Source: a virus. From it: a DNA stretch of 64,000 nucleotides. The stretch is from IMG/VR virus record IMGVR_UViG_3300012005_000004, positions 1 to 64,000 of that record; one strand, given 5' to 3'. Of this stretch, positions 54,409-55,794 are shown one piece after another. The position numbers were made by a program, and so were the translations under genes. Position 1 is the first letter of the stretch. Each line of letters starts with the position of its first letter. The notes beneath the pieces are model-generated. The model saw only the letters and a list, made by a program, of their open reading frames with translations. It searched no databases and was not told where the DNA came from.

Positions 54409-55794
54409 ATGAGTAACGAGATCTACTACACCAGCCATGATGGTGGTGCTACGCTCTTTATGGACGGAAAGCTGAAGTCAATCTCCAGCGATCACCCAAA
54501 TTTCATGAAGATCATGAGCGCTCTCAAGGCAAAGTCATATGACTTGGCCATCAAGCTCATGGACATGGTAGGAACCATCAATGATATTGGATCAAATGTT
54601 TCCAAGAAGTTTGTTGGTCGTAGAGTTTTTGTCGAAGGTGAAACGGTTTACTTCACGGATGAAAATGGCAAACATCATGTCTTGCACGGTACTCTTGTTG
54701 ATCGCATCATCGATGATATCGGTAAGCCATCTGGACAAAAATATGCAGATGCTCTCTTGGCTCTTCAAGATAACATCATGCGCAACACTCGCAAGGATAT
54801 TCGCGAAGAGCTGTATGAGTTCTTAATGTCTGGAAAGACGCCGATCACGATGGATGGTTGCTTCCTGGCTTACAAGAAGGTAAAGGCTGCAAACAAGCAA
54901 GGTCAATACCTTGACATCTACTCTGGAACTATGGATAACGCGCCTGGTAAGATTCCGCGTATGGATCCAAAAGATGTCGACGCAGATCGGTACCGAGAAT
55001 GCTCTCGAGGACTGCATTTCTGTTCTCGTGGTTATTTGAGTCACTATGGAAATGGAGATGGAGATGATTCATCTGTAGTTATGGTGGTGAAGGTCAATCC
55101 AAAGGATGTGTTTGCAATTCCTACGGATTATTCATTCCAAAAAGGTCGGGCATCTGAATATTATGTGGTAGGTATGGTTAATAAGGGACACGATCTTTCC
55201 AAAAGTGACGTGTTCAAGGATTCTTTTATCGATGAAGATAGCAAGGAAGCTTCGGCACCGAATGTTACATTCAAGGCGCCTCTCAAGGCTGGCTTGCAAA
55301 CTGTTGGCGAAAGCTATGGTTTGATCAACGATGGAAAATGCTTGGTCATCGAACAGAACGGAAAATATGTTCCAGTTAGATCAGCTTCATTCACCGGTAA
55401 GGTAGATGCTCCTGGTGCCGATCAAGTGAAGCATCGGTTGGGTAAGGTTATCATGGAGATGTTTGAATTGGCTTCATTTGAAGTTACGAGTGACCTTACT
55501 CTTGAACAAGTTGGTGGCGATTCGCTAGATGCGGTAGAGCTAGTTATGGCGATCGAAGATGAGTTTGAGATTGAGATCTCCGATGATGATGCTGAAAAAT
55601 TCCACACGTCAATGGATATTCTTAACTATCTGCTCAAGGTGAATAAGATCTTTCCACCGAATAAGTATTCTTATGTTGATGTTCTTGGAACTCCAGTTAC
55701 CGGAGAACCGAAACTCATGTCATTTGAAACGAAGTCGGTTCGTCAGTCAGTAAAAGAAGCAGTACAAAAAGCTCAAGGATCTGTTAAGAGTTAA
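54409..55794 (+). CDS. rIIB: rIIB-like protein with embedded acyl carrier protein domain
   Basis: HPNF, IT.DG.FLAYK.V, CS.GLH, V.VNP.DV..IP.DY; ACP at about aa 338-410 with GGDSLD. Confidence 0.9.
   Translation: [461 protein letters not shown]

Follow-up and report, generated by a model that had tools for sequence, protein, structure and literature searches.

The rII locus and the carrier domain within rIIB

The IMG/VR virus record IMGVR_UViG_3300012005_000004 is a viral contig of 80,369 bp, and the window analysed here is its first 64 kb (64,000 nucleotides). Within the window lies an rIIB gene whose product, P0001, contains an acyl carrier protein (ACP) domain. CheckV places the completeness of the contig at 22%, so that the full genome would be about 365 kb, and the source is a giant soil phage. 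The stretch is present in two runs of one soil-metagenome study (X1 and X2); no RNA dataset is among the sequencing runs listed for it.

The rIIB gene occupies positions 54409–55794 on the plus strand as a single open frame of 461 amino acids plus stop. Its partner gene, rIIA, lies upstream on the same strand (51263–53896; PHROG 612, E 6e-95), and the two are separated by a stand-alone response-regulator receiver gene (53957–54325, plus strand; Pfam Response_reg, E 2.9e-13) with a separate promoter-like site at 53902–53930. Just 5' of rIIB, a consensus scan picks out a candidate sigma-70-like promoter (54339–54367, plus strand; TTTACA and TATAAT around a 17-nt spacer, 11 of 12 positions), and a putative ribosome-binding site, GGAGG, can be read at 54395–54399 (plus strand), 9 nt 5' of the ATG at 54409. 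A terminator-like hairpin of the intrinsic type, with 12 pairs, stands 3' of the stop codon (55825–55852, or 55825–55862 with its T run, plus strand).

The assignment of the gene to rIIB is secure on several grounds. Residues 12–261 match PHROG 609 ‘RIIB’ (E 1.8e-51), four more rIIB PHROGs also match, and the precomputed Pfam listing for P0001 holds PF26926 (Phage_T4_rIIB) together with PF00550. A tblastn search with P0001 matched 2592 phage records, many with rIIB annotation. The residues that are invariant in the family, judged from 250 homologues, are all present (G150, C198, G201, H203, Y209, P231, P238 and K245).

Read along the chain, residues 1–330 (54409–55398) form the rIIB body, which comprises the N-terminal part, the conserved core and the initial strands of the C-terminal subdomain. 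A linker modelled with low confidence follows (residues 331–335, 55399–55413), and here the alignment to relatives without an ACP ends. The ACP (PP-binding) domain covers residues 336–412 (55414–55644), with its phosphopantetheine-acceptor position, the serine of a DSLD motif, at residue 372 (codon TCG, 55522–55524). After a second linker of low model confidence (residues 413–420, 55645–55668), the protein closes with a conserved rIIB tail that includes a YVDxxGTP ... ETKSVR helix and is recognised both by alignment and by a tail profile (residues 421–461, 55669–55791).

Residues 336–412 are a full AcpP-type carrier domain with an intact serine, a conclusion in which sequence profiles, PDB sequences and structural matches agree. 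The Pfam PP-binding family (PF00550) matches residues 348–407 at 37 bits, compared to a gathering cut-off of 20.8 (E 4e-9), and reaches 40.5 bits in a six-frame search. The NCBIfam AcpP models align end to end, residues 339–410 falling on positions 4-76/79 (E 6e-17). Their equivalog and subfamily cut-offs (TIGR00517 and NF002148–NF002151) lie above the scores obtained (61.3 vs 71, 59.5 vs 106 and 55.9 vs 70.45), and the module is therefore AcpP-like rather than an AcpP orthologue. All matches in a PDB sequence search were ACPs, E. coli AcpP among them at E 1e-10, and PHROG 5934, a family of stand-alone phage ACPs, also matches the module (E 3.6e-13).

The structural evidence is of the same kind. 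An AlphaFold 2 (AF2) model of P0001, built with 122 homologues, has a predicted local distance difference test score (pLDDT) of 90.5 and a predicted template modelling score (pTM) of 0.83. It places the helices of the module at residues 337–352, 372–386, 392–395 and 401–411, so that helix II begins exactly at Ser372, within the acceptor motif GGDSLD. Low confidence is confined to the two linkers (pLDDT below 50 at residues 329–332, mean 59 over 411–420). Foldseek retrieved only type II ACPs, with E. coli AcpP at 41–43% identity, a root-mean-square deviation (rmsd) of 1.5–1.9 Å and template modelling (TM) scores, normalised by target, of 0.80–0.87. In an independent aligner, VIA-align, run over 48,161 chains, all rows were carrier proteins (Z up to 12.4), carrier domains of modular synthases included. 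A sequence-only reading of this DNA had placed a full ACP fold within rIIB at about residues 338–410, with S372, encoded by TCG at 55522, as the acceptor serine, and had named a PP-binding profile scan and a structural match as its check. Both came out positive (37 bits; rmsd 1.5–1.9 Å), and the serine codon is confirmed by direct reading of the sequence and by alignment to solved ACPs.

The ACP is a clean insertion into a short loop of the C-terminal subdomain of rIIB, held on two flexible linkers. Four relatives that lack the ACP (P0006, P0007, P0008 and P0004; 356–376 amino acids, 53–61% identical to P0001) align to P0001 from residue 1 to about 327 and then again from 421 to 461. The tail is 60% identical to the last 42 residues of P0004, and its profile is present in 119 homologues. 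From this two-sided alignment it follows that about 90 residues separate the ‘VPVR’ hairpin from the YVDxxGTP ... ETKSVR tail, and that the 50 or so further in-frame residues noted after the ACP in the sequence-only reading are the conserved end of rIIB. P0005, an orthologue of 464 amino acids from another data set that is 62% identical to P0001, carries its ACP in the corresponding place; together they form a sister pair (support 99) within a group of ACP-less proteins (support 97). The base composition of the insert is the same as that of its flanks, indicating that the insertion is not recent, and neither flanking direct repeats, a composition shift nor a mobile-element signature was found at the insertion.

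Could the fusion be an artefact, either an assembly chimera, as the sequence-only reading itself had allowed for the junctions, or a frameshift that joined rIIB to a separate ACP gene? The window is part of a metagenomic contig, and in run X2 one Logan contig break lies at 55401–55417. Against this, a 14.7-kb Logan contig from run X1, made by a different assembler, covers 54976–55900 with zero differences and spans both junctions. The X2 contig ends at 55401 in a loose end, AGATGTGTATAAGAGACAG, which we take to be library adapter sequence; this would make the break a technical matter and not a biological junction. A neighbouring contig crosses the downstream junction. Furthermore, P0005 reproduces the layout in a separate data set, and after the ACP the reading frame resumes the conserved rIIB tail. 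An artefact is thus essentially excluded.

Recurrence of the fusion and conservation of the module

To place P0001 among its relatives, we searched 1.84 billion cluster representatives exhaustively with HMMER and surveyed the best 150 of about 5,000 rIIB homologues. An ACP-module profile detected the domain in 20 of these 150, a ranking in which two-domain proteins are favoured, and all ten of the fused proteins passed to Pfam scored above the PP-binding cut-off. Among the nearest 120 relatives, three have the ACP. The layouts differ. In P0154 and P0308 the ACP lies N-terminal to the core. It is internal in P0001 and P0005, the site of P0001 being shared only by P0005, and in other internal cases that have 50–150 residues after it. 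It stands at the extreme C-terminus in a further set that includes P0044, where it lies beyond the conserved tail. P0128 and P0224 are further fusions. On a FastTree phylogeny of 252 cores, the ACP trait changes 14 times, and at least eight of these changes are forced by well-supported branches.

P0308 comes from a complete 165-kb IMG/VR phage, G008 (locus L134, 9605–10960), and combines an N-terminal helix-turn-helix (HTH), a Lys-rich linker, a serine-bearing ACP and then the core. The ESM Atlas contains rIIB clusters with HTH_38/CENP-B or Myb domains; rIIB evidently accepts DNA-binding add-ons too. No usable match came from searching the ESM Atlas by features.

A search of 50,697 deposited phage genomes with P0001, P0224 and P0128 as probes gave about 2,600–2,900 rIIB matches per probe, none of which covered 80% of the query. 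The 77-amino-acid ACP module alone, a short and acidic query, had no match among deposited phages by tblastn at E 1e-3, and megablast of positions 51000–57000 against them gave no match. We also looked for rIIB and ACP as neighbouring genes. None of the best 80 IMG/VR rIIB loci has an ACP within 10 kb, and no split form, rIIB plus an ACP neighbour, was therefore seen; 79 of the best 80 IMG/VR ACP loci, ranked by likeness to the module, are without rIIB within 10 kb. In the literature we found no paper describing an rIIB–ACP fusion. An overview of jumbo phages contains a single mention of rIIB and none of ACP (PMC7824862), and in the Vi01-like phage PhiSH19 an ACP gene of 110 amino acids lies about 76 kb from rIIB (PMC3220722). 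The sequence-only reading had known of no such fusion, a statement that now needs revision, as fusions recur (20 of the 150 best metagenomic representatives) and are missing from the deposited genomes reached by the three probes. In other words, this is a new domain-architecture variant of rIIB that is recurrent in wild phages, not seen in deposited ones, and for which we found no description in the literature.

A tethered AcpP-like domain also occurs in another type of non-synthase protein. The metagenomic proteins P0002 and P0003 (357 amino acids) are Sel1-repeat proteins with a C-terminal ACP that is 44–46% identical to the module and shares with it one identical stretch of 20 residues.

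Conservation within the module is uneven. The segment D371–K397, equivalent to residues 35–61 of AcpP and extending from the start of helix II to helix III, is identical to E. coli AcpP at 19 of 27 positions (a manual count from the printed alignment). This segment is the surface read by ACP partners. Helix I and loop 1 have diverged, with the loss of one residue, that aligned to AcpP Phe28. Between P0001 and P0005, identity is 71% in the core and 70% in the tail, compared to 34% in the ACP module, and each module is closer to the stand-alone ACP P0260 (53% for P0001, 43% for P0005) than to the other. Such low mutual identity could reflect either fast divergence from an AcpP-like ancestor or replacement of the cassette.

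Across 21 modules fused to rIIB, the acceptor position is occupied by serine in 15, by glutamate in five and by aspartate in one, with no neutral replacement, and the acidic replacements are scattered over the tree at four or more separate points. This pattern indicates that the module can do without carrying a cofactor but retains a negative charge at this position.

Coenzyme A genes, ACP enzymes and other genes of the contig

The sequence-only reading had pointed out that the window encodes the last two steps of coenzyme A (CoA) synthesis, and had implied a tie between these and the ACP. The first part is correct, in the form of one fused gene: the open reading frame at 29737–30894 encodes a CoaE–CoaD protein of 385 amino acids, kinase first and adenylyltransferase second, and both halves score above their equivalog cut-offs (TIGR01510, coaD, 153.5 vs 103.3; TIGR00152, dephospho-CoA kinase, 66.8 vs 65.55). 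The second part is not borne out by co-occurrence. G003 (345 kb) and G004 (389 kb), the two closest of the complete ACP-less relatives, have CoaD reading frames of similar size and no PP-binding domain anywhere, and CoaD is missing from G008, the complete phage with an rIIB–ACP fusion. In this small sample, the CoA genes thus appear to belong to the clade rather than to the insertion. Two genes after CoaE–CoaD lies a dihydrofolate-reductase-like gene (31361–32008).

A carrier domain is converted to its holo form by a phosphopantetheinyl transferase (PPTase). A search for a PPTase (PF01648) was negative for the 80-kb contig, for G008 and for four complete jumbo phages that have stand-alone ACPs, so that any modification of the serine would fall to a host enzyme. 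When about 50 other proteins encoded on the contig were scanned with Pfam, no fatty-acid, acyltransferase, adenylation or thioesterase family was recognised, the only near candidate being an alpha/beta-hydrolase of DUF676. This DUF676/PGAP1-like putative esterase (locus L170, 9404–10120; contig 73404–74120) is the sole lipid-type enzyme seen in the contig.

Directly 3' of rIIB is an HNH endonuclease gene (55901–56551), followed by one for a PAS-GGDEF-EAL protein of 706 amino acids (56747–58867); another PAS protein is encoded on the minus strand at 41019–41678. The window also holds a phage copy of a bacterial stress trio, PrkA, YeaH (DUF444) and SpoVR, at 42220–49531. It consists of the PrkA serine kinase (42220–44208; NF011999, 992 bits), the DUF444 protein (45856–47241; E 1.5e-126) and SpoVR (47987–49531; E 1.1e-141). 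A set of the tellurite-resistance type extends over 19135–26843, with a DUF475/TerC membrane protein (19135–20163), a TerD-domain protein (24404–25042) and a vWA-TerF-like protein (26076–26843). Other host-like genes encode a TROVE (Ro60-like) protein (61081–62517), a GH16 glycoside hydrolase of 788 amino acids (38634–41003, minus strand), an adenylosuccinate-synthetase-like protein (14793–16046) and an ATP-dependent DNA ligase (10058–11464). Beyond the window, the contig encodes a collagen-repeat protein of 642 amino acids (locus L170, 14386–16314; contig 78386–80314).

Possible roles of the module and relation to known systems

The rIIA and rIIB genes are among the most famous in genetics. 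The rII genes of T4 and T6 counteract exclusion of the RexAB type, a property established genetically (PMC13716836; bioRxiv 10.1101/2023.05.28.542683). How rII defeats RexAB is still described as unclear (bioRxiv 10.1101/2023.05.28.542683), as is the reason why RIIB triggers a bacterial gasdermin system. The interaction surface of ACP is very well understood, and its repeated joining to rIIB provides a testable lead on the rII mechanism. P0001 is the clearest case of internal insertion. Given that close ACP-less relatives fix both junctions within a few residues, the module should be cleanly deletable or transplantable.

Our leading, if tentative, interpretation is that the module serves as a tethered docking handle and not as a working fatty-acid carrier, in line with the suggestion of the sequence-only reading, which we judge reasonable, that an ACP mimic may engage ACP-dependent proteins. 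The module would present its ACP recognition surface (residues 371–397) to a protein that normally recognises ACP, and docking would either bring rIIB to that partner or block it. As Ser372 is intact, the module probably becomes holo through host AcpS, and the partner probably recognises, among other features, the negative charge at position 372. A docking role is suggested by four observations: recruitment of the domain has been repeated and independent of position, helix II is conserved, the serine is replaced only by acids, and no enzyme that would use a carrier was found.

Several points weigh against a docking handle. Retention of the serine in 15 of the 21 fused domains, P0001 included, is compatible with a real carrier as well. 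Cassette replacement or relaxed constraint could instead explain why the P0001 and P0005 modules share so little identity. The ACP is often absent from close relatives (P0006–P0008, G003 and G004) and thus is not needed for the core function of rIIB, and the frequency of fusions in the survey, 13%, is inflated because the query itself holds an ACP, so that two-domain proteins rank higher. The contig represents only 22% of the genome, so a PPTase or ACP-dependent enzyme could be encoded in the remainder. A complex prediction for the rIIB body (residues 1–330) and the ACP module, run with no controls, returned a score of 0.00 and speaks neither for nor against docking.

Alternatively, the module may be a working carrier that host AcpS converts to the holo form and that is then acylated, its arm anchoring rIIB at the membrane or delivering a thioester to a site on rIIB or rIIA. 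We consider this a serious rival, though somewhat unlikely. Arguing for it are the canonical DSLD serine, its retention in most fused domains, the 41–43% identity to E. coli AcpP across the entire fold, and the flexible linkers on both sides, which resemble those of megasynthase carrier domains; an invariant Cys198/His203/Lys245 cluster in the core is a potential reaction centre. Counter to this, at least four lineages have glutamate or aspartate in place of the serine, the module has a gap opposite AcpP Phe28 in the alignment, its scores fall short of all the AcpP equivalog cut-offs in NCBIfam, and neither an acyl-ACP enzyme nor a PPTase was found in the contig. The module also evolves far faster than its scaffold (34% vs 71% identity), unlike housekeeping ACPs. 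That same rapid divergence would suit a third explanation, in which the variable regions of rIIB tolerate extra domains and the ACP is a dispensable cassette that was acquired and is drifting. The close relatives without an ACP, the many gains or losses on the tree and the rIIB clusters with HTH or Myb domains instead are consistent with such an add-on. We nevertheless regard it as unlikely: members of a single domain family have been taken up again and again, at three different positions, the fold, helix II surface and DSLD motif survive the divergence between P0001 and P0005, and a base composition matching the flanks shows that the insertion is not recent.

A wider reading bears on the rIIB core itself. 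A core-only model is confident (pLDDT 93.2), and Foldseek found nothing for it at E 0.001 or better. With VIA-align the best Z was 5.2, which is under the noise standard, so the resemblance that emerges is a lead only: proteins of the ADP-ribosyltransferase fold, such as Arr, BC2332, pertussis toxin S1 and PARP13, account for 13 of the 50 rows and for nearly all rows spanning residues 136–294. We found no paper linking rIIB with this fold. If the recurrent fusions are taken as Rosetta-stone evidence, rII may act on or through the host network of holo- and acyl-ACP. The rIIB core would then be an enzyme or ligand-binding module, with Cys198-x4-His203, Tyr209 and Lys245 and a weak likeness to the ADP-ribosyltransferase fold, and would either act on the phosphopantetheine arm or the ACP surface or be regulated by it. 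Most phages, T4 among them, would rely on free host AcpP as the partner, and the fused ones on a private tethered copy. Taken jointly, these proposals are a long shot. If true, they would provide the first biochemical handle on rII.

Looking across known systems, P0001 shares with T4 RIIB the N-terminal part and core (PHROG 609), the invariant residues, an rIIA gene just upstream and a conserved C-terminal tail common to more than 100 relatives. It differs in the ACP module of about 90 residues within the C-terminal subdomain and in the response-regulator gene that separates rIIA from rIIB, and the fused form was in no deposited phage genome searched with the three probes. Compared to bacterial AcpP (PF00550; TIGR00517), the module has the full four-helix fold, the DSLD serine at the start of helix II and the acidic surface of helices II–III (the 19 of 27 identities counted manually). 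In contrast to AcpP, it is embedded in a larger protein, has no fab genes nearby, is fast-evolving and has a loop 1 that is one residue shorter. The carrier domains of type I fatty acid synthases, polyketide synthases and nonribosomal peptide synthetases likewise sit between flexible linkers in a larger polypeptide, whereas neither P0001 nor the contig has a recognisable synthase, transferase or adenylation domain.

The stand-alone phage ACPs (PHROG 5934 and 4154) are, like the module, phage-borne PP-binding domains, with no phage PPTase in five complete genomes, but theirs are separate genes with rIIB not adjacent. The nearest counterparts are the other metagenomic rIIB–ACP fusions, in which the identical two families are joined in one chain, although the layouts vary and the serine is glutamate or aspartate in six.

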